A DNA stretch of 64,000 nt, taken from a virus. A program made the translations under genes and the position numbers. Under the pieces are notes generated by a model. The model did not search any database. It was not told where the DNA came from and saw only the letters and a program-made list of their open reading frames with translations. How positions within the stretch are numbered: position 1 is the stretch's first letter; each line of letters opens with the position of its first letter. Shown in pieces: positions 1,241-63,106 of the stretch. The DNA is taken from IMG/VR virus record IMGVR_UViG_3300046820_000298, positions 1 through 64,000 of that record; one strand, given 5' to 3'.

Positions 1241-4200
1241 TTATTTACCTGAGCCAGCTCCTAAGTTAAACCACTTAGATGCATCGTCTGGATTAGATGA
1301 TTTTTCTATACCACCAACTATTGGGATAAGTTCTTCAAGCTTAGCTAAGAACTTATTATCTCCTTTATCGTGTCTTCCACTTTTTCTAACATAATCTAAT
1401 CCTTCTCTATCTCCTGTGATCATACCACCAAGTTCAGCAGTACCGAGATCCCATAGGTTAGCTACCTTTTGTAGAGGTCTGATAGTAGCTGTTGGAGATT
1501 CAGCCATTTTAAGGAATTCTGTTGGACTAGAGAACTGACGTAATTCTGATTCCATTCTAAGTGCTTGATAAAGCAAGAATTGTTCAGCATATGATGGATC
1601 TTCATCGTCATCATCAGATAGGACTGCTACAGCTAGTACACAAAGTAACATAAATGCAGCTTGTGCTCCGAATCTCTTTATGTTCTCTTGCTCAAACTTT
1701 TCCATGTTCTTATAAACACCTACGAAGTTTCCTTTCTTTTGCCAAGTTTCTTTTACTAATCTAGCAGCTGTGTGGTAGATACCTTCTGATATTGTTCCAA
1801 GTTCTAAGTCTCTATGTAACCCGGCACCTAGTGTACCACTTCCGTGTCCGTAATATCTTCTAAGTGATGGGACAAAGTATCTTCTAAAGAGCATAACTAA
1901 CTTACCCCACCATCTACGTTGTAGAACAGCATCATCAAACTTATTCTTAACCTGGTTTGTCTTCTTAGTCAATCCAGATACTTTCATTCTGAATTTACTT
2001 CTTATCTGATCAGCATTAGCAACCTTTGGATCAATGCCGTATCTACCAGTCTTCTCATCTAGAATGAATACATCCCATAGATTAGCAGGCTTACCAGATT
2101 CATTCATTATTACATTGCCTTGTGCATCTTTGAGTTTACCCTCATAAGATTTCATCATAGCAAGCATTCTAGTAACAGCTGTTTCATTCTCCATTATCCC
2201 TTGAAGGGCCATAGGGATATTTTTTACGGCCTTTAATGCTACTGGTCCTGTTTTGTTTCCTGTATCTGTAGATAGTGTTTCCCCTAATGCATCAAAGAAG
2301 TGAATAGCTTGACCCATCTTTCCTTTAGGGACAAACTTCTCATAGTCTTTCATCTGACCAATACCTTGCAGTTGCAAGTGATAAGTAGATTTAGCCCAAG
2401 CTAGATCTCCTTTAGAAAAGAACTGCCCAGCTACTCCTTCTTCTATAAGTCGTACGTTATCTAAGAGTAACTGGTTACCTGCTTGAAGGGCATTGAATGC
2501 AAGGTTGTTTAAAGCTGTAAAACTTGCTAGTTTACCTGCCATCTTATTATAAGAAAACTCCTTACCTGCAAAGTTTAAGCTCTTTTTAAGCTCCTCTTCC
2601 CCAAAGAATACAGTATCAATAAACTCAGAAAGATGTTTGAAGTTATTTGATACCTCTTTATTAGTTTGATATCTAACTTTACCTACAATCTTAGACCACC
2701 TGTTAACTACTGGAGAGTTATTAGCAGTAACAGCTAGTGGCTCTCTGTTCTCAACTATATCTCTCATGAGCATTACAGCTCCTTGTACCTCAGACTTTCT
2801 CTGGTACATGTTAGACATACCTGCAAACTGAACAATAGCAGAAGCCATGTCTCTAGTTGCAAGCTTTTCGTTGATTGGATTTACGTAGAAGATAGGGATA
2901 ACTTTATCTCTAGCCTCTTTGTTAGCATTGATTGAATCACCGTAGTGAGTATCTGTAGATAAGAAGTTTATAGCATCTCTAGCTTCTAGTTTAGCATAGT
3001 TAACAACCCCATCTTTTTGAACTTTCTCAAGTCCATCAGCAAGTATTGCTGGAGCTACATAGCTAAAGTTCTCCCATGAGTTTCTTATCGGGCCATTCTT
3101 TCCTATCTGTCTCTGACTATCCTTATACACATCTAGAAGAGCATTGTAATATTCGAATGCTGGGCCATTAGCTTTAAGAGCTGTATACTTTGGGTTAGCA
3201 TATTTAGATGCTAATGGCTGAACTGCTCTCCCTTTAAATTGTCTACGTTTAGGATCATAGATTTTATTCATCAAACTCTGGATCTCCTGGATCTGAGAGT
3301 GATAGTAAGCCATCCTGTCTCCGTCGTTAGTATTAGTAGCAGATGCCAATCCTTTATTAGCTGCAGCAAGTTCGTTAGTTAATCTCTGCAATAGCTTCTG
3401 TGAATCAGGGCTAGGCTCAGAGTTGTTAGCATACCAGTTAGATACCTCTTCGTAGAACTGAGCTACCTTAACTTTGTTTTTAGCATCTTCGAACCAAGCC
3501 TTTCTTTCATCTGATGTATTAGGAATACTGTATTTGGTATTAAGCCCATCATACATAGTTGACTCTGCTTTTCTATATCCAGTTACATCTAAAGGTTGTA
3601 CAAAAGTCAGCAATTTTTCTTTTCTACTTTCTCCAGTTTCTGGGTCTCTAACCATGTACTCGTGTACCTCGAGAATATCTTCGTTAAAAGTTACAGGGTT
3701 AACTCCAGAACCTTTAGTCTCTGCAAACTTTCTATATGCATCAGCAACTCTATAAGCTATATCTTGAGTATCATCGTTAGCTTCATACAGTTTATTCTTC
3801 AAAGTCATAGCAAACATCTGAAGACTAACTTGAGATGAATAAATAATAGGATCTAGCAAGTAACTAAATGCAGATTTATCTTTCTGAGCTTCTCTTAATT
3901 CTTTAATCAGAGTCTCTCTTCCTATCTTTTTATTCTCCAGCTGCTGTATGTTTAATGCAAGTTGAGCTTCGAATAAACCTTCTTTAGTTGTGATTTTATT
4001 TCCTTTGCCATCGGTCAATGTACCCTCTTTAAATCTCCTCTCCAAAGATCTCCACTCATCATTCTTATCTGGGGCAATAAGTCTTTTGTTATCTCTAATA
4101 TTTTTAATGACACTATTAATCTGATCTTCTACATCACTATTGTTGTATTCTAGAAGCAAGTCAGCCATCATAGGGATGCCTATCTTATTATAATCTTCTG

Positions 4201-55349: not shown

Positions 55350-57253
55350 TATATTGTCCAGATTGTTGTTATTGTAATTATAGTAGCCGATCCAACTGTG
55401 GTACTATTATTTTGAATCTTAATTGCTATTCTATCAGATGCAGCAACACTCACACTACCAGTAGCTGTAAATGTCCCAGCAGCACTACCAGCTGCTATTG
55501 TTAAAGCTAAGGATGTATCTGCTGTATTAGAACGTACAGTAAAGACAAGGCTTCCTGTTGCTGTCTGTGTATTGTTTGTTATTACTGTAATAGCTGATGC
55601 TGTTGCAGCAATCCCAAAAGCAGAAACCCTTACGTTTTCAGTAGAGTTACTTACTGAAGCTAATCCAGAGTAAGTAGTGGTGTTTATACCTACGTTAGTT
55701 CCCGGAGTAGCAACAAGAGCACTAGACCTAGATCCAGTTGTACTCCACGACCTGTTAGCACTTAAGTCATATGTAGTCCCATCAATAGTAAGTGTCCTTG
55801 TTGACGGAACTTTGTCATTAAATGTACTCCAATCTGTAGAACTGAGCTTACCTGTATTAGTAGCAGAGGCAGTAGGGAGGTTAAAAGTATGTGTAGTACT
55901 TGCTGAACTTATAGCAAAGTCAGTACCTGATGTTCCTGTAGCAAAAGTCTGAGTTGCCCCAGTCAATCCGTTAAGAGATGTTATTGCTGCACTAAGTGGA
56001 GTGTAACCTAGTATTGTTGAGATAGATGCAGTTTTCCACTGTGCAGGGGAGACTGAGTTATCATACCATAGTGTATCTTTTAATGATGGGGTTCTTGCTT
56101 GTACGTTATGTAGCTCATCTAACTCATACCCATTTTGTACTTTAACGTACATTCTCCCTGCAGAACCTGGGCTGGCTGTTGTAACAACACCAAGGTAGAC
56201 AAGGTGGTTAGGGGCATATGGTTTAACATTAGTTATAGACCCGGCTGTAGCTCCAAGATAAACTGTATCCCCATCAGCAAAAGTAGAAGTTGGGAGGATA
56301 CTTAATCCATCCAACAACCCTTGCATCATTATCAATCCTTTTTGGTTTGCAGCAATAGATGTAGATAACACAAGCCCTACTGTCTGAGCTGATGTAGCAT
56401 CTGCAGTGTTAGCTGCTCTTTTAACAGTCATTCTATCCCCGGTACCACTAAAAGCATAAACTGCTTGACCCTTAGTTAAAGTTACTGAGTCATCATTAGT
56501 TACATAACCAAGAAGTGTGTTAGGGGCTGTCCCAATGGCTTGGAATCCACCAAGAGTAGAGTTATAAATGCACAGCATCTCTCCTCCATTAACTATATCC
56601 CCACCTATTAAAGCCCCGTCATTGTTTCTATAGAGAGTTACTGCCCCAATAGAATTTATGTTTAATGTACATCCAGTAGTATTCCCATTAGTAAACCTAA
56701 TTAGATAAGCATCCCCATCATTGTAGGCTGTTACCCCTGTAAGAGTTACTGTGTAAGTATCTGTTCCTGAGGCTGTTCCGTGTAGAATTCCACTCCCAGT
56801 ACCTGCTCCAGCTATTGTAAAGCTTGGGTAAGTCCCAGTAACAGTTACCCCTGAAGTCCCAGTTAAGCTAACTACTTGGTCAGGAGCTGAGTTAGTTACA
56901 GTTATATTCCCTGATGTAGTAATAGGGTTAGTTCCAGACAATGAAATCCCAGTCCCAGCTGTTAGCTGTACTGATGTAACAGTTCCTGTACCTCCCCCAG
57001 AAGCTGATATAGTCAATATCCCATCAAGGTTAGTTATTGTAATCCCACTCCCAGCTTGGATTAAGTCAGTTAGATACTTAAATCTAAATGCATCCCTTCT
57101 TAAGCTGTTAGTGTAAGATGTAAGTACTTGGTTAGGGAAGATGTTATCAGTCCTCTTATAGTACAGCTCATTAGTAGTATCTACATCAAGCAGCTGTTTA
57201 AGGCTGATATCAACCTTAGTTATCTTATTTTGTTTATAGAAAGGGGATTGCAT
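55349..57253 (-). CDS. tail fibre / receptor-binding protein
   Basis: 634 aa and Thr/Gly/Ser-rich. TVTSVQLTAGTGIS, YELDELHNV, ITSLNGLTGATQ and ASATNTGKLSSTDW fibre modules. Confidence 0.75.
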   Translation of the reverse strand: MQSPFYKQNKITKVDISLKQLLDVDTTNELYYKRTDNIFPNQVLTSYTNSLRRDAFRFKYLTDLIQAGSGITITNLDGILTISASGGGTGTVTSVQLTAGTGISLSGTNPITTSGNITVTNSAPDQVVSLTGTSGVTVTGTYPSFTIAGAGTGSGILHGTASGTDTYTVTLTGVTAYNDGDAYLIRFTNGNTTGCTLNINSIGAVTLYRNNDGALIGGDIVNGGEMLCIYNSTLGGFQAIGTAPNTLLGYVTNDDSVTLTKGQAVYAFSGTGDRMTVKRAANTADATSAQTVGLVLSTSIAANQKGLIMMQGLLDGLSILPTSTFADGDTVYLGATAGSITNVKPYAPNHLVYLGVVTTASPGSAGRMYVKVQNGYELDELHNVQARTPSLKDTLWYDNSVSPAQWKTASISTILGYTPLSAAITSLNGLTGATQTFATGTSGTDFAISSASTTHTFNLPTASATNTGKLSSTDWSTFNDKVPSTRTLTIDGTTYDLSANRSWSTTGSRSSALVATPGTNVGINTTTYSGLASVSNSTENVRVSAFGIAATASAITVITNNTQTATGSLVFTVRSNTADTSLALTIAAGSAAGTFTATGSVSVAASDRIAIKIQNNSTTVGSATIITITTIWTI

Positions 57254-57483
57254 TAGTTTTTCTTAGCTTGGGCTTGTATCCTTAGATGAGTCTTCTCTTG
57301 TTCTGCTGCCATGATAGCCATGATACCTCGTAGCTCCTCATATGAAAACTGGCACACAAACTTCTCCTCTTCATCCAAAAACTGCACAACTTTATCATCT
57401 ACATATACTCCCATGTAGGTTAGACACTCATCCCCAGTTGTAAACGGAGGTTGATACAATCCTGTTTTAATGGTGGTAGGCAT
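57253..57483 (-). CDS. hypothetical protein
   Basis: Likely start MPTTIK at 57483 after an AT-rich leader. Coupled to the fibre gene. Confidence 0.55.
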   Translation of the reverse strand: MPTTIKTGLYQPPFTTGDECLTYMGVYVDDKVVQFLDEEEKFVCQFSYEELRGIMAIMAAEQEKTHLRIQAQAKKN

Positions 57484-57582
57484 AAAATTGTACTTTAAAA
57501 TTTTAGATAAAAGTACAAAAACTTTCCCAATTGGGCACACCTATCCCCTTAGAGATTTTTTTGTTTAAAATTAACTTTCAGT

Positions 57583-57790
57583 TTTGCCGTTTTTAGCCTT
57601 CGGTGGGACGTTCCATTCTTCCCTATAGTCTTTATCCACCCCAAAACCTTATGTCAATTCTTTTTCTGCAACTATCGGGGACAACTTTTGTACTCTATGT
57701 TATTGAAAGTGAGTACAATAGAACCCAACGTCTGACCCCCTACTTACCTTTTGGCCCTCAGGGGTGATCATTCCATTGAATGGTTGCTAG
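57583..57790 (-). ncRNA. candidate structured non-coding RNA (unassigned family)
   Basis: ORF-free and GC-richer, with nested helices whose G-U pairs work on the - strand. TAACTTTG promoter element at 57792-57799. Confidence 0.5.
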
Positions 57791-57804
57791 GCAAAGTTAG
57801 ACAA

Positions 57805-57945
57805 TTATCCTTGCCCCTGTGACATTTTTTTATAAAGTTTTGAACTTTTAAGTTTAGAACTCTTTTTCTTAGCATGTACCCCTGGACGTTTCTTTCTAGT
57901 GTTAGGACTGAACCCATTGACTGTGTTTACTTTAGCTTTAGCCAT
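57805..57945 (-). CDS. 46-aa highly basic protein (not in ORF track)
   Basis: MAKAKVNTVNGFSPNTRKKRPGVHAKKKSSKLKSSKLYKKMSQGQG. Promoter element TAAATTTG at 57962-57969. Confidence 0.7.
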   Translation of the reverse strand: MAKAKVNTVNGFSPNTRKKRPGVHAKKKSSKLKSSKLYKKMSQGQG

Positions 57946-58035
57946 TTTGTTTATTTTGTCACAAATTTAATATGAAAAATGTTACGAACTTTGATTATCT
58001 TCGTGACCTAACAATTTAACCCAAATCTAAATCTC

Positions 58036-58356
58036 ATGTTCCCAATCACATCAACTAACGAGGAGAAAGTTCTCGTATCTATCAATCCAACTACTGCTGC
58101 TGGAAATCCTGCAACTGTTGACGGAGTTCCAACTTGGACTGTTGTCGAAGGTGACGCAACTGTAGAATTATCTGGTGATGGCCTTTCTGCTTACATCATC
58201 TCTGGTTCAGCTAACGTAGTTAACATGATCGAAATATCAGCTGATGCTGACCTCGATGCTGAAGAAGTTCGTACTATTACTGAAACTATCGTTTACACAG
58301 TAGTTGCTGCTGAGGCTCAAGCTCTCGGAATCAATGCTGCTGTTGAACCTAAGTAA
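58036..58356 (+). CDS. small Ig-like / beta-sandwich protein
   Basis: VSINPTTAAGNPATVDGVPTW...DGLSAYI. Acidic, with highly expressed codon usage. Confidence 0.65.
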   Translation: MFPITSTNEEKVLVSINPTTAAGNPATVDGVPTWTVVEGDATVELSGDGLSAYIISGSANVVNMIEISADADLDAEEVRTITETIVYTVVAAEAQALGINAAVEPK

Positions 58357-58368
58357 TCTTAAACTAAG

Positions 58369-58674
58369 ATGAATCTTAACGTATACTTTGACAATGCAAC
58401 TGTCTACAACTTTGAAAAACTCGACGTTAGTGTTGGGGAAAAGTTTAAAGTAGAAGCAGTTAATGCCCCTGCTGGAATTGCATGGTTCTTTGATAATGAC
58501 CCAGTTATAGAAGCTGAAACTATGGAGAATCAAGCAATCATTACAGCAGCTAAAGAAGGATTGACTAACGTGCTTTTTGTAATGAACAATAGCCAAGTTA
58601 TCCACAAGTTTACTATTAACGTAGTAAATCCCGTAAATTTGAATCCCGTAGTTCTAAACGTAGAACTAAAATAA
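58369..58674 (+). CDS. small Ig-like protein
   Basis: LDVSVGEKF...WFFDNDPVI...ITAAKEG.T.V resembles the bacterial Ig-like group 2 pattern. Confidence 0.6.
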   Translation: MNLNVYFDNATVYNFEKLDVSVGEKFKVEAVNAPAGIAWFFDNDPVIEAETMENQAIITAAKEGLTNVLFVMNNSQVIHKFTINVVNPVNLNPVVLNVELK

Positions 58675-58697
58675 ATTCCGTTCTTACCCTAAGAATT

Positions 58698-58726
58698 AGC
58701 CTCCTTAATTGGGGGCTTTTTCTTTT
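58698..58726 (+). terminator. intrinsic terminator
   Basis: AGCCTCC-TTAATT-GGGGGCT followed by TTTTCTTTT. Confidence 0.8.
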
Positions 58727-58881
58727 CCCTAAAATCCCATTATTGTATGATTTATCCGTCATTAAGCCTTAATTCCGTGGTTAATGACTGATTTATCACA
58801 CATTAAATTTTCTAGCTGGTTAAAAATTTTTTAGTTGGAAATTTTTTGAGAGTGTTGTCCTACGTATTCAAAGACCCCCAC

Positions 58882-58910
58882 TAACTTTGGCGGAGCAAAC
58901 TTCCCTCCGC
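58882..58910 (+). promoter_or_regulatory. Bacteroidota-type -7 promoter element followed by a hairpin
   Basis: TAACTTTG (58882-58889), then a GCGGAG...CTCCGC stem upstream of ATG 58921. Confidence 0.5.
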
Positions 58911-58920
58911 ATCATTTGCT

Positions 58921-59079
58921 ATGAAATCAGCATACTTGTCAGAACGTACTGGCACCCTCGTTATCACCGATCGTACTTGGACTGATGCAGGTCCATCGGA
59001 GAAGTCTTACTTCATCCGTGCTACGGACTCTGACTACCAGCAAGCCATCGACTGGGCTACATCCAAAGGACTCTTATGA
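58921..59079 (+). CDS. 52-aa hypothetical protein (not in ORF track)
   Basis: MKSAYLSERTGTLVITDRTWTDAGPSEKSYFIRATDSDYQQAIDWATSKGLL. Stop codon lies within the hairpin CCAAAGGACTC-TTAT-GAGTCCCTTTGG. Confidence 0.6.
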   Translation: MKSAYLSERTGTLVITDRTWTDAGPSEKSYFIRATDSDYQQAIDWATSKGLL

Positions 59080-59149
59080 GTCCCTTTGGGTTGTTAGCCA
59101 GAGGTTAGAATAACCACTAACTAACTAGCCAACTAACTAATAACTAATT

Positions 59150-59410
59150 GATTAGAGTCAGATGGAAGGACGAGAGTATATGTCCCAACTCATCACACTC
59201 TAATTCGTGGGGTAGAATAGTAATCACCAAATTGATTGCATCATATTCTATCCCACTTTCTCTCATTGCATTCAGTTGTAATACCTTGTGTAAGTCCTAA
59301 ACTTAATCGTTACCTATTAAGTCTTACGTAGATACTTCTCTACATTATGTAAGCAGGGTGTTTAGGGTTCTAGTGTTTAATCACAAAAGACTATTACAAC
59401 TGTTTGCTTT
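59150..59410 (+). ncRNA. candidate large structured RNA / early leader
   Basis: Three consecutive long helical domains, including 13-bp and 11-bp stems. G-U pairs favour the + strand. Confidence 0.5.
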
Positions 59411-59447
59411 CTTGTATCGTAAACAATAACTCATCAATAACACAATC

Positions 59448-59660
59448 ATGAAAAGACCATTTGATTTCCTCAAGACTATTGCTGAACTAGCAATCGTTGC
59501 TATTGTACTATTCATTGCTCCGGCAATTGTACATTCAGCAGTAACACTAGACTTTACTCATTACCTCAATGACCTATCATCTAGTGCTTACTGTGGTATC
59601 ATGTCCTTTGTATCCTTCTTCGGTACTCTATTCTTTATCGTAGTTGAAACAGAAAACTAA
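59448..59660 (+). CDS. small 2-TM membrane protein
   Basis: Two hydrophobic helices in 70 aa. Confidence 0.65.
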   Translation: MKRPFDFLKTIAELAIVAIVLFIAPAIVHSAVTLDFTHYLNDLSSSAYCGIMSFVSFFGTLFFIVVETEN

Positions 59661-59672
59661 TTCTATCACACT

Positions 59673-59873
59673 ATGAGAGAAGATAAGTACAATTTTGCAG
59701 AGACTACCACATTCTATGCACTCATTATCATTGGCATTACACTGATGATAATCTTCATGACATCTTGTAGTCAGACCCAACATGGGTTTGACTATAAGTC
59801 TCATGCTAAATCAAATGCTGAGTGGAAACACAAAGCTGAACACAACAATCTCCCAAAATGTAATCGTCATTAA
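59673..59873 (+). CDS. small putative lipoprotein
   Basis: Hydrophobic signal ending IIFMTS-C, a Bacteroidota-style lipobox. Confidence 0.6.
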   Translation: MREDKYNFAETTTFYALIIIGITLMIIFMTSCSQTQHGFDYKSHAKSNAEWKHKAEHNNLPKCNRH

Positions 59874-59874
59874 C

Positions 59875-59973
59875 ATGAATGAAACAACTAAAGACATTCT
59901 GCTATTCGTAGCAGGCTTCCTAGTATCAGCAGCAATCACAGTTATGTGGTTGGTAATAGGAGCAATTATATAG
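59875..59973 (+). CDS. 32-aa single-TM peptide
   Basis: MNETTKDILLFVAGFLVSAAITVMWLVIGAII. ATG lies 1 nt after the upstream stop. Confidence 0.6.
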   Translation: MNETTKDILLFVAGFLVSAAITVMWLVIGAII

Positions 59974-59987
59974 GGGTTCAATCCCCT

Positions 59988-60048
59988 TTTACTAATGCAG
60001 CCATCGAAAGATGAGAGTCACAAGCCTCTATAAATGCAGAGTGGTAAA
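59988..60048 (+). ncRNA. twister self-cleaving ribozyme (type P1)
   Basis: P1 UUUA/UAAA, C-U^AA, P2 UGCA/UGCA, T2 GC/GC, P3 CAUC-GAAA-GAUG, P4 AGAG/CUCU, L4 UCAC-AA-GC, T1 UCAC/GUGG, and conserved GA after P2. Confidence 0.88.
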
Positions 60049-60089
60049 CAATTTATTCATTAACTTTTTTAATTTAAATCATCAAAATC

Positions 60090-60698
60090 ATGATGAACAA
60101 CACAATCAACAGTGGCTCATTGCAAGGATTGCAAGCTGGCCAAACCCTTCTCGTTTCAGCTCGTAAAGTAGCTGGTAACAAAGTTCAATTGGAATTTGCT
60201 GAGATTGTCAGAACACAGTCTACTGCAGCAAGTCCACTTGCTCTATTCAACAAATCAGACGATCGTTTCTCACAAGGAGGTGCTCGTCGTGCTTGGTTGA
60301 CTGCTGAGCCTAAGGATGCAAGTGCTTACTTGTCTATTGATGTTACTGATTCCAATCCTAATTGGACAGTAGATTCAATGGGACGTGAAGTACTCTCTTT
60401 GAACATCCTCAATCCAGTAGCTAACATTTCTGGAGAGCAGATTCCACTTAAGTTGGAGGTTGTAGAAACTACTACACCAACTGAGTATCAAGCTGCTAAC
60501 TTGGAGACAGCTGCCAAGCGTCGTGGTAAAGATGGTGATTTCATTACTCACAAGGGAATGTACATCTTTGCTAACACACGTATTGCTTTTCACAAAGCAA
60601 ATCACGTATTCCTCGAGGCTGATGCAGCTGCAACTACTACTAAGATGAGTGGTATTCCAGCAGGTGTTGACTTCAGCACAGGAGAGATATTCAGCTAA
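60090..60698 (+). CDS. putative single-stranded DNA-binding protein (crAss-like)
   Basis: 202 aa and beta-rich, with a flexible tail ending DFSTGEIFS. Highly expressed codon usage, its own terminator and a position near polA. Confidence 0.5.
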   Translation: MMNNTINSGSLQGLQAGQTLLVSARKVAGNKVQLEFAEIVRTQSTAASPLALFNKSDDRFSQGGARRAWLTAEPKDASAYLSIDVTDSNPNWTVDSMGREVLSLNILNPVANISGEQIPLKLEVVETTTPTEYQAANLETAAKRRGKDGDFITHKGMYIFANTRIAFHKANHVFLEADAAATTTKMSGIPAGVDFSTGEIFS

Positions 60699-60716
60699 TC
60701 ATTTAGTTGAATAGTA

Positions 60717-60752
60717 AATCAGGGTGGGCTTTATAGCTCATCCTGATTTTAT
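60717..60752 (+). terminator. intrinsic terminator
   Basis: AAATCAGGGTGGGCT-TTAT-AGCTCATCCTGATTT followed by a T-rich tail. Confidence 0.8.
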
Positions 60753-60773
60753 TCTTCATTTAATTCTATTAAA

Positions 60774-60869
60774 ATGAAACTAACAACGAAGCTAGTTATA
60801 GCTCTCATTTTGTCATTAATCGTAGGGGCATCTGTCTCTATGCTATGGAGCATTGCATTCCATAACTAA
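60774..60869 (+). CDS. 31-aa single-TM peptide (not in ORF track)
   Basis: MKLTTKLVIALILSLIVGASVSMLWSIAFHN after an A-rich initiation context. Confidence 0.5.
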   Translation: MKLTTKLVIALILSLIVGASVSMLWSIAFHN

Positions 60870-61014
60870 AAACATTATCCTCTCATAGCAAATAAAAGGA
60901 AGGCAGTAGTAAGCATCAAAAGCAAGGTTTTAGAGGAGCCTTGCTGCTTATTGCTGTATAGTTACCTGCATTTTATGCAGCAATTAATCACGAAACAATT
61001 AAACTAGTATAGAA

Positions 61015-61248
61015 ATGAGTAAAACAAAATTTGTATTAGACTTAATAGAGTCTAACAGCTATCAAGCATTTGAAATACAAGCTATGATGGCAGCTGAGAA
61101 AGGAGAAAAGTTCTTTCAGTTCGGGAATGCTACGTATGACGTAGAGTTTGCCGCTAATGTAATGGTGTATATTTACCACACAATTCAAAAATCTTATGAA
61201 CAGCAGCATTTACTTCATCAGCAAGAACCAGGCACTGATACAGAGTAA
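61015..61248 (+). CDS. hypothetical protein
   Basis: 77 aa, overlapping the polA start. Confidence 0.55.
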   Translation: MSKTKFVLDLIESNSYQAFEIQAMMAAEKGEKFFQFGNATYDVEFAANVMVYIYHTIQKSYEQQHLLHQQEPGTDTE

Positions 61249-63106
61249 CTTTAACACATCAACAATCAATGAAGCAGTTGAGTATCTATCTACTAAGCTA
61301 GTATTAGGGGTAGATACAGAGACAGAAGGATTTGATTTTACATGTAAGAAGTTACTAATGCTTCAGATTGGGGATAGAGAACGTCAGTATGTAATTGATT
61401 GTAGAGATCTAAACCAAGAGGATAATGCTCAACTAAACACGGTGTTAAACGATGCTGGTATCGTCAAGATATTCCACAATGCAAAGTTTGACTACAAGTT
61501 TATCAAGCATTACCTTAGAATAGATACTGTAAACATTCATGATACATATCTATGTGAGAAAGTGTTACACTGTGGAAAGACTGATTATGGGTTTGGATTG
61601 GCTAAACTTGTTAAGAGATATCTTGATAAAGACTTAGATAAATCTGTACGTAATAGGTTTACTCAAACATCTTCTACTCCATTTACTGATGATCAGATTG
61701 TCTATGGGGCTAAAGATGTAGAGTATCTAATAGATATCTACAACAAACAGCTAGAGCTATTACCATTGCAAACTCTTTCTAATGTAGCTAGTCTAGAAAA
61801 CCAAGCGGTGATTGTATTCTCTGAGATTGAGTACAATGGACTAGAGATTAACCTCGAAGCTTGGAAGAAGTTAGCTGATAGAAACAAAGCAGAAAGCACT
61901 ACTTTAGAAAAGCAATTAGATAATCTGTTGCTATCCTATCCAGAGTTCAGTAAGTATAAGGCTAAGAAGCAATTAGATCTATTCCTAATGGAAGAAGAAC
62001 TAAAAGATTCAACTGTTAATTGGGATAGCCCAAGTCAAGTGCTTAAGATATTCCAGACTCTATTCCCTAAGATTGAGGATGTGAATGGTAAGAAGCTAGC
62101 ACCTTACAAGTACAAGCATAAGCTTATCGAAGAGTACATTAAGTACAAAGAGAAAAGCAAACTAGCATCAGCATTTGGGCAGAACTTCAATAGCTTTATT
62201 AGCTGTGATAATAAAGTGCATACTAACTTTCAACAGATACTAGACACTGGACGTGTATCATCTAGTGAACCTAATATGCAGCAAATCCCAGCAACTAATG
62301 AGTATCGTAATTGCTTTGTTGCTCCACATGGATGGGTGTTTGTATCTTCTGACTATAGCTCACAAGAGTTAAACGTAATTGCATACGGAAGTCAAGACCC
62401 TGTGTTCTTATCAGCTCTTAGAAACAATGAAGACTTGCACTCAGTATGTGCTGAGTTAGTATTTGCTGATGTGTGGAGAAATGCATCTGAGCATGATTGT
62501 GCTTACATGAAAGCTAAAGAGAAGTGTGAGTGTAAAGAACACAAGAAACTTAGGACACAGGTTAAGACAATCAACTTTGGATTGGCTTATGGAATGGGTC
62601 CTAAGAAGTTATCTGAGACTATTAACTCTACACTTGCTGAAGCTAAACAATTGATTGATAAGTATTTCAAAGCTTTCCCTAAGATTAAAAGATTTCTTGA
62701 TGATCAGGGAGAATTTGGGAAGAGGTACGGGTATGTGACTACGTTCTATCCTTTCTATAGGAAGAGATGGTTTGATAACTGGACCCCTAAAATGTACAAT
62801 GATAGTGACAGCTTTATGGAGCTGGGTTCTATCGAGAGAGCATCAAAGAATACCCCAATTCAAGGTAGTTCAGCTGATATGACAAAGCTAGCATTAGTTT
62901 ATCTTCACAGACGAATCAAGAAGCATGGCTATCCAGTTAAGATAGTAATGACTGTTCATGATCAGATAGATACCATTTGCCCAGAGGAATTTGCAGATGA
63001 GTGGAAACTATACATGACTGAGGAGATGGAGAGAGCAGCTAGTAAGGTAATCAGAAATGGGTTATTAAAAGCAGACACATCAATAACTAAAGTATGGAGT
63101 AAGTAA
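61196..63106 (+). CDS. polA: DNA polymerase family A with 3'-5' exonuclease
   Basis: Exo I GVDTET, Exo II HNAKFD, Exo III YGAKD. TGRVSSSEPNMQQIP, motif A DYSSQEL, motif B RTQVKTINFGLAYG, motif C VHDQI. Confidence 0.93.
   Translation: MNSSIYFISKNQALIQSNFNTSTINEAVEYLSTKLVLGVDTETEGFDFTCKKLLMLQIGDRERQYVIDCRDLNQEDNAQLNTVLNDAGIVKIFHNAKFDYKFIKHYLRIDTVNIHDTYLCEKVLHCGKTDYGFGLAKLVKRYLDKDLDKSVRNRFTQTSSTPFTDDQIVYGAKDVEYLIDIYNKQLELLPLQTLSNVASLENQAVIVFSEIEYNGLEINLEAWKKLADRNKAESTTLEKQLDNLLLSYPEFSKYKAKKQLDLFLMEEELKDSTVNWDSPSQVLKIFQTLFPKIEDVNGKKLAPYKYKHKLIEEYIKYKEKSKLASAFGQNFNSFISCDNKVHTNFQQILDTGRVSSSEPNMQQIPATNEYRNCFVAPHGWVFVSSDYSSQELNVIAYGSQDPVFLSALRNNEDLHSVCAELVFADVWRNASEHDCAYMKAKEKCECKEHKKLRTQVKTINFGLAYGMGPKKLSETINSTLAEAKQLIDKYFKAFPKIKRFLDDQGEFGKRYGYVTTFYPFYRKRWFDNWTPKMYNDSDSFMELGSIERASKNTPIQGSSADMTKLALVYLHRRIKKHGYPVKIVMTVHDQIDTICPEEFADEWKLYMTEEMERAASKVIRNGLLKADTSITKVWSK

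Follow-up and report, generated by a model that had tools for sequence, protein, structure and literature searches.

What does a self-cleaving ribozyme accomplish when it is placed between two genes of a phage? This question is raised by a stretch of 64,000 nucleotides (nt), positions 1 to 64,000 of the IMG/VR virus record IMGVR_UViG_3300046820_000298, which is called the window below and supplies the coordinates used throughout. Near its end, a short gap between genes on the plus strand carries a twister-like RNA (59988-60048) that is abutted on its 5ʹ side by a small hairpin (59972-59987) and followed by a conserved gene for a 202-amino-acid (aa) protein (60090-60698). An earlier note on this DNA, made from the sequence alone, had interpreted the arrangement as a complete twister ribozyme that divides an early transcript. 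Judging from sequence evidence within the window and among its relatives, we regard positions 59988-60048 with high confidence as a genuine and complete type-P1 twister. We also consider it rather probable that the hairpin and the ribozyme (59972-60048) together represent a twister with its P0 stem, located in an early or replication transcript that cuts itself and thereby splits the message.

Both strands of the window were scanned against 4227 Rfam families with E-value reporting. The twister-P1 model (RF03160) produced a full-length alignment (model positions 1-68) at 59989-60047 on the plus strand, with a score of 59.4 bits and an E-value of 3e-13 for a 251-base stretch or 7.7e-11 for both strands of the whole window. 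No other Rfam family was encountered in the window at E < 0.1. The covariance-model search that the earlier note had suggested as a check therefore returns a significant match, although its score falls 8 bits short of the RF03160 gathering score of 67.2 bits. A scan of the whole window at gathering thresholds gave no match, and the twister emerges only when E-values are reported. The score is depressed because P3 is short and because pseudoknot T2 is formed by CAC and GUG rather than by CCC and GGG.

Every element that the earlier note had listed for a complete type-P1 twister could be placed on the plus strand by using the sequence together with the RF03160 alignment. Stem P1 is formed by 59988-59992 with 60044-60048, P2 by 59996-59999 with 60035-60038, P3 by 60002-60005 with 60010-60013 around a GAAA loop, and P4 by 60014-60017 with 60026-60029. 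Both pseudoknots also can be placed, with T1 joining 60000-60001 to 60024-60025 and T2 joining 60019-60021 to 60041-60043 through three pairs. However, a fourth T2 pair that had been proposed (U60018-G60044) does not hold, as it would compete with C59992-G60044 of P1. From the alignment with the family consensus, the scissile bond is predicted to lie between U59993 and A59994, within the conserved UAA at 59993-59995, which is the cleavage site that had been named previously. Likewise, G60039 had been assigned as the catalytic guanine, which is in agreement with solved structures of the class.

No non-standard pair is flagged in the full-length alignment. The sole departure from the consensus within a pseudoknot is the change from CCC to CAC, which is offset by a change from GGG to GUG on the opposite strand. 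With the exception of this CAC, the strongly conserved nucleotides of L1 and L4, including the A located 3ʹ of the scissile bond, all match. The minimum-free-energy fold of 59965-60060 reproduces the 5ʹ hairpin, P1, P2, P3 and P4 exactly. Its energy is -20.9 kcal/mol versus -14.75 +/- 2.87 kcal/mol for shuffled sequences (z of -2.14), with 8 of 200 shuffles folding equally well. The RNA thus resembles the Rfam type-P1 twisters in carrying P0, P1, P2, P3, P4, T1 and T2, as well as the conserved loops and a U-A cleavage step next to P1.

Additional representatives were sought by using the 202-aa protein as a query, which recovered 32 related IMG/VR loci at 50-87% identity. Several of these loci are near-duplicates, such that the number of independent lineages is smaller than the number of loci. 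Rfam scans of 24 of the 32 loci revealed twister-P1 in 11, at scores of 40.7-57 bits that are all under the gathering score. Our own covariance model, R1, was built from 11 sequences and run over the window and the 32 loci (246,164 bases in total). It identified twisters in 13 loci at 68.1-78.5 bits, along with a far weaker match at 26.1 bits in a fourteenth (L011), and it scores the window twister at 84.7 bits. In the complete genome of 81,151 bases, the same model finds exactly one twister, at 59988-60048. The window twister and its 11 Rfam-matched relatives differ from RF03160 members in that they all lie below the curated cut-off, and therefore the default threshold misses this phage subgroup. 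This observation has a practical consequence, namely that a large set of phage twisters, the subgroup in the window among them, is overlooked at the Rfam default setting.

Stronger evidence that the structure is maintained comes from twisters that are distributed more widely among phages. A pattern search of IMG/VR in which P2 and parts of the loops were held fixed gave at least 110 stretches, and application of R1 to 100 sources (898,398 bases in total) yielded 126 matches with E <= 0.001, which reduce to 118 distinct rows. Among these rows, which were gathered by means of a fixed pattern and aligned by fitting to our own model, 95.3% of the 2453 cells in the family structure and both pseudoknots can pair. 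The corresponding values are 71.7 +/- 0.6% in shuffled alignments and 24.6-46.1% when the partners are slid by one to three columns. Double-sided changes are present in 18 of 22 pairs, the covariation score is 0.523 versus 0.124, and none of 500 shuffles reached any of the observed measures. Pairing is found in 83.3% of the cells for P1, 100% for P2 and 99.3% for P4, and the pseudoknots, each with double changes, pair in 99.2% (T1) and 99.1% (T2). The T2 value is particularly informative. This pseudoknot is part of neither the search pattern nor the model, and yet its middle pair is AU in 84 sequences, CG in 20, UA in 6, GC in 5 and another combination in 2. The twister fold is therefore under selection in these phages. 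The E-value and the covariation together rule out a chance match.

The earlier note had named synteny of the ribozyme and the 202-aa gene in relatives as a point to be examined. The association is indeed conserved. In 10 of the 32 loci (L001-L007, L009, L010 and L032), a twister immediately precedes the homologous gene, with 40-45 nt separating the end of the ribozyme from the homolog's start codon, and in three more loci it is found approximately 570 nt upstream. The conserved gene order begins with hydrophobic proteins of 70 aa and 66 aa and a variable insert, followed by the hairpin and twister, the 202-aa gene, a tRNA-like element, a 77-aa gene and a polymerase gene. The gene located just before the hairpin varies. 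It encodes a peptide of 32 or 63 aa in both the window and L001, whereas the corresponding proteins have 79 aa in L002, 139-142 aa in L003, L005, L009 and L010, and 52 aa in L032. Hairpin, twister and 202-aa gene thus stay together among relatives while the upstream neighbour changes.

The same pattern invites a different interpretation, in which an active twister serves as a joint between exchangeable gene cassettes, or persists as a selfish passenger, with little or no benefit for expression. The ribozyme would then mark a recombination border that separates variable accessory genes from the replication module. Such an interpretation is consistent with the differing genes upstream of the hairpin and twister in close relatives, with the 144-aa gene that intervenes between ribozyme and homolog in L016-L018, and with the presence of other RNA elements in the same slot of other relatives. 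It is opposed by the compensatory changes that maintain all stems and pseudoknots, which point to selection on activity rather than on a DNA site, and by the single twister copy per genome. Moreover, a border position and a role in processing are not exclusive. We therefore judge it unlikely that the twister is only a joint or a passenger, and continue with the proposal that it processes the message.

The slot before the homologous gene is occupied in other relatives by an H-type pseudoknot, by long hairpins, or by a terminator accompanied by a shared motif. The H-type pseudoknot, followed by an A/U-rich stretch, is found in the leader of the gene in more distant homologs, namely L022, L024-L028 and L030 (approximately 2940-2990, or 185-235 in L026). 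Across eight sequences, 88.6% of its cells pair compared with 77.1% in shuffles, and double changes are present in 7 of 11 pairs, such that both stems show compensation. Long hairpins precede the homologous gene in L008 (approximately 975-1040), L016 (approximately 2915-2985), L017 and L018, and their loop is complementary to a short run located about 25 nt downstream. These hairpins possibly form a pseudoknot, or else correspond to the hairpin found ahead of the twister in L016, in the form of a split copy. In L011-L015, L023 and L031, which lack a twister at this position, the motif TTTGGATTTA follows a terminator-like hairpin and resides approximately 25-35 nt before the start codon, where it might serve as a dedicated promoter in place of the ribozyme. 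The weak R1 match in L011 (1495-1599), which has a matching stretch in L014, is located about 40 nt before another gene. It keeps P1, the UAA, P2 and the 3ʹ loop, carries roughly 40 extra bases, and places the pseudoknot-forming loop on an inserted hairpin, and it may be a rearranged twister variant.

The second element that requires explanation is the hairpin adjoining P1 (59972-59987), which consists of a 5-bp stem and a 6-nt loop and has a folding energy of -8.2 kcal/mol when placed in a frame of 30 nt. We read it as P0, an established optional stem of twisters that is located 5ʹ of P1. Close relatives keep the stem, and the loop sequence is different in each group. In L016-L018 there is a different stem with a 5-nt loop, and in L001 no hairpin abuts P1. 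The twister consensus is described as comprising three stems that are indispensable (P1, P2 and P4) and at most three that are optional (P0, P3 and P5) (PMC5408937).

A hairpin at this location is common among phage twisters. By requiring that it end 0-1 nt before a P1 strand of 3-5 nt and fold with -5 kcal/mol or better, we found one before 86 of 119 distinct phage twisters, compared with 724 of 4568 random places in the same loci. This positional test was used because a percentile test of folding energy, in which random 30-mers of the same locus served as the reference and 64 of 119 twisters fell at or below 5%, loses power in G+C-rich phages. Four or more T residues are present within the next eight bases for only 16 of these 86 hairpins, and 70 lack such a T-tract. 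Hairpins before phage twisters are, as a rule, not intrinsic terminators.

The earlier note had compared this hairpin to the T arm of a tRNA, and one could envision a mimic through which enzymes that act on tRNA are brought to the cleaved end. The loop does read like a T-loop in the window sequence alone, and tRNA-like elements are present in the gene cassette of relatives, but these are located after the gene. The hairpin exists as described; nevertheless, every relative in which the stem is retained shows another loop sequence, a hairpin next to P1 is missing from L001, and hairpins with unrelated loops are general at the same place among phage twisters. Neither Rfam at E-values up to 0.1 nor ARAGORN reports a tRNA in the window, and the possibility that 59972-59987 is a tRNA or a fragment of one was rejected on this basis. 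Because the loop varies among relatives and no tRNA model matches, the likeness to a T arm is most probably a coincidence of one sequence. We consider the mimic to be close to refuted and give it almost no weight.

With an authentic twister and a P0-like hairpin in place, a specific sequence of events can be proposed. Cleavage by the twister class is described as yielding a 2ʹ,3ʹ-cyclic phosphate and a 5ʹ-OH (PMC8782182, PMC5408937). A plus-strand early or replication transcript would cut itself between U59993 and A59994. The upstream message would then end with the P0 hairpin, seven further nucleotides and the 2ʹ,3ʹ-cyclic phosphate, such that P0 could cap it against 3ʹ exonucleases. At its start, the downstream message would have a 5ʹ-OH buried in the folded core; it would then continue through an A/U-rich leader of 41 nt (60049-60089) into the 202-aa gene, and end at a hairpin at 60716-60749, or, in relatives, at a tRNA-like element that would be cut by the tRNA-processing enzymes of the host. 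The net effect would be to uncouple the stability and translation of the conserved gene from whatever sequence lies upstream. Overall, processing of the message by the ribozyme is plausible. The fold of the 3ʹ product together with its leader and first codons is not distinctive (z of -1.57).

Several observations weigh against this proposal. In addition to the Rfam score below the gathering value and the selective manner in which the covariation sample was assembled, R1 finds no twister near the gene in 18 of the 32 related loci, a few of which have short upstream flanks, and therefore the gene does not need one. The distance of approximately 570 nt and the intervening gene in L016-L018 are similarly unfavourable. 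Furthermore, a hairpin followed by UUUU in this A/T-rich family could act as a weak intrinsic terminator, and transcripts that end there would never contain the ribozyme. In the window, the four U residues after the hairpin double as the 5ʹ strand of P1. Finally, a 5ʹ-OH can destabilise RNA in hosts that use RNase J, as is the case for glmS.

The last two points could instead indicate that the ribozyme lowers or times expression, either through decay that depends on the new 5ʹ end or through a combination of cleavage and the hairpin-UUUU element that limits read-through out of the early peptide genes and into those of replication. A simple scan does list 59973-59985 as terminator-like on the basis of its short 5-bp stem and T-rich tail, and destabilisation of the glmS type operates in Firmicutes. 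Twisters in 3ʹ untranslated regions also are reported to affect expression (PMC6765202). Against these points must be set the description of the 5ʹ end of the twister 3ʹ fragment as buried in the fold (PMC8782182) and the missing T-tract after most hairpins that precede phage twisters. In addition, the downstream gene is the most conserved of its neighbourhood and heads the replication module, which would seem to fit protection better. A role in reducing or delaying expression is thus improbable in our estimation, and division of the transcript by self-cleavage continues to be the reading that we favour.

Sequencing archives also were consulted. Six runs gave small shares (0.06-0.17), all of them in the form of contigs, and the four that were examined contain only assembled contigs of relatives in which RNA ends are not visible. 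Two of these are recorded as RNA, and here portions of the 202-aa gene are covered by contigs, with one contig starting inside the ribozyme, and 59400-60010 is uncovered. The other two probably represent DNA, and in these the ribozyme site is bridged by a contig with one or two differences. Assembled contigs of relatives are evidence neither for nor against cleavage or transcription.

The 3ʹ side of the 202-aa gene carries a structure of its own. The earlier note had described the message of this gene as terminator-bounded, and a strong 15-bp hairpin is indeed present on the plus strand at 60716-60749, following the stop codon. Alignment with the tRNA-like genes of eight relatives identifies this hairpin as the relic of a tRNA-like gene found at the same place in those relatives. 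Both strands of the acceptor stem are kept, and the D arm, the anticodon arm and most of the T arm are gone. The elements in relatives match the Rfam tRNA model at 52-58 bits and are located at approximately 3616-3713 in L001-L003, L005, L009, L010 and L032, and at 1691-1770 in L008. ARAGORN assigns two- or four-letter 'anticodons' or enlarged loops to those of L001, L005, L007, L008, L009, L010 and L032, reports 7 of 9 elements as 'tRNA-???', and makes ordinary-looking tRNA calls only for L002 and L003.

In relatives, the tRNA-like element would presumably be a site for host RNase P or RNase Z. With a twister before the gene and such a site after it, the gene in these relatives would therefore be bracketed by two RNA-cutting signals. 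A broader and more tentative view, which we consider possible although it has less than even odds of being correct, is that the leader slot and the 3ʹ end of the conserved gene form an exchangeable system of RNA 'punctuation' in freshwater crAss-like phages. A single message would be excised and protected in this manner, with the phage ribozyme cutting one end and host RNase P the other. P0 would then be more than an optional ribozyme stem and would serve the upstream product as a dedicated 3ʹ-end cap. The interchangeable parts before the gene would be the P0-twister, the H-type pseudoknot or the long hairpins, and those after the gene would be a non-decoding tRNA-like element or its hairpin relic.

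How does this arrangement compare with systems that have been described previously? The closest natural parallel is provided by hammerhead ribozymes in prophages, which are also self-cleaving RNAs in gaps between phage genes of the same strand (PMC3088659). Since 2011, hammerheads that flank prophage genes have been proposed to cut long transcripts into messages of gene length (PMC3088659). In the haloarchaeal virus HF2, a hammerhead precedes an early helicase gene, and a 5ʹ end has been mapped to a position no more than three nucleotides from its cleavage site (PMC3088659). The twister described here differs in that it belongs to another ribozyme class, occurs once per genome rather than in pairs or triplets, and is known from its sequence. 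Twisters also have been noted near phage genes, where processing of polycistronic transcripts was suggested and their function is described as still speculative (PMC6765202, PMC5408937). Protein-free processing of mRNA in phages, which the earlier note had put forward as the implication of this locus, is consequently not a new idea, as it was raised first in connection with hammerheads (PMC3088659) and, at a later time, with twisters (PMC6765202). The window twister does not reveal a new kind of system. We found no paper that names a twister in a crAss-like phage, in a search that lacked most subscription journals and supplementary files. One preprint reports that hatchet ribozymes are largely confined to Crassvirales.

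An engineered system offers a second parallel. The synthetic pRAP design has the same order of stem-loop, twister, ribosome-binding site and gene (PMC9872166). When the stem-loop was omitted in Escherichia coli, only the last cistron was well expressed, a result given as 'data not shown' (PMC9872166). The stem-loop was thus critical for the upstream cistrons in that system, and the hairpin in the window is proposed to act likewise. That device is engineered and was transcribed by T7 RNA polymerase in E. coli, whereas the element in the window is natural and resides in a phage of the Bacteroidota type. The hairpin in the window is placed exactly where the engineered system needed its stem-loop, and other RNA elements occupy this slot in relatives. 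With one ribozyme per complete genome and a fixed border before a highly conserved gene, the locus represents a clean case. It could serve as a natural test bed for whether phage ribozymes set the boundaries and stability of messages.

Comparison of homologs identifies the 202-aa gene (60090-60698, plus strand) as the first conserved gene of the replication module. The earlier note had labelled its product a putative SSB, but we found no sequence match to an SSB or OB-fold family in Pfam, PHROGs, PDB sequences, the ESM Atlas or phage records. PHROGs and the ESM Atlas gave no match, Pfam gave nothing at E < 0.1 (the best E-value, 0.16, is below the cut-off), and a profile search of PDB sequences gave best E-values of 0.39 and 0.87 for unrelated enzymes. 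A tblastn search against 50,697 phage records also returned no match. A profile search recovered 759 homologs at E <= 0.001, and among the 120 that were listed, every given name is 'hypothetical protein' and none carries a Pfam domain. Two weak hints are the conserved C-terminal tip that the family possesses after a variable stretch and the H-type pseudoknot in the leader of more distant homologs. The gene also had been called abundant, and nothing supports this description. A 51-aa frame at 60011-60166 is unsupported as a gene, and it overlaps the conserved RNA as well as the beginning of the 202-aa gene.

The larger genomic setting agrees with the previous assignment of this virus to the crAss-like phages. 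The virus record comprises 81,151 bases with direct terminal repeats and is rated 100% complete. The best matches of its large terminase belong to crAss-like phages, with 40-43% identity along 96-97% of the protein and a top match of 43.0% over 97%. The terminase matches extend to 166 records, and most of these are either crAss-like phages or Bacteroides, Flavobacterium and Cellulophaga phages. The layout of the genes also fits, and includes a long minus-strand module encoding proteins of 1560, 2394, 2326 and 1850 aa. The placement of this freshwater phage among the crAss-like phages (Crassvirales) is thus supported by sequence comparison. A blastn search of 58500-63100 against the same 50,697 phage records gave no match.

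The plus-strand module starts near 59448 with a variable set of genes for small hydrophobic membrane proteins, and continues with the hairpin and ribozyme, the 202-aa gene, the 77-aa gene and a family-A DNA polymerase (61196-63106). The last gene upstream of the hairpin is predicted to encode a single-span hydrophobic peptide of 32 aa (59875-59973), beginning at an in-frame ATG of a 63-aa frame (59782-59973). The start at 59875 is likelier than that at 59782 because the 63-aa frame overlaps a 66-aa frame (59673-59873) by 92 bases; the ATG at 59875 is two bases past the stop of the latter. The TAG stop codon of the 32-aa peptide (59971-59973) overlaps the foot of the hairpin, and among the relatives compared only L001 has a homolog of this peptide.

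Promoter sequences were evaluated as well. The motif TAnnTTTG, the -7 element of Bacteroidota promoters, is not present on the plus strand between 58890 and 64000, and therefore no host-type promoter is seen between the ribozyme and the 202-aa gene. This motif is not enriched in the window (78 occurrences versus a mean of 67.1). Sigma-70-type promoter matches in 57200-61300 are fewer than in shuffled sequences (7 versus a mean of 12.0).

A location in a short gap between genes of the same strand is shared by 63 of 106 phage twisters, compared with 221 of 1995 random places. When orientation was judged from the longest open frames for these 106 twisters, which is a weak test, the downstream frame was on the same strand in 69 cases and on the opposite strand in 37, and the upstream frame in 65 and 38 cases, respectively. 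Numerous phage contigs possess a pair of twisters that share a strand and are separated by 0.6-1.8 kb, as if bracketing single genes (IMG/VR loci L034, L035, L037, L038, L040, L042, L043, L053, L067, L096, L108, L112 and others).

Two additional RNA matches were encountered in relatives. A group I intron match at 53.2 bits (gathering score of 50) lies downstream of the gene cassette in L008, at 3483-3698. Matches to ctRNA_p42d that are below threshold (28-34 bits, gathering score of 50) are located approximately 1.4-2.6 kb upstream of the twister in three relatives, at 1474-1509 in L001, 601-636 in L032 and 255-290 in L010.

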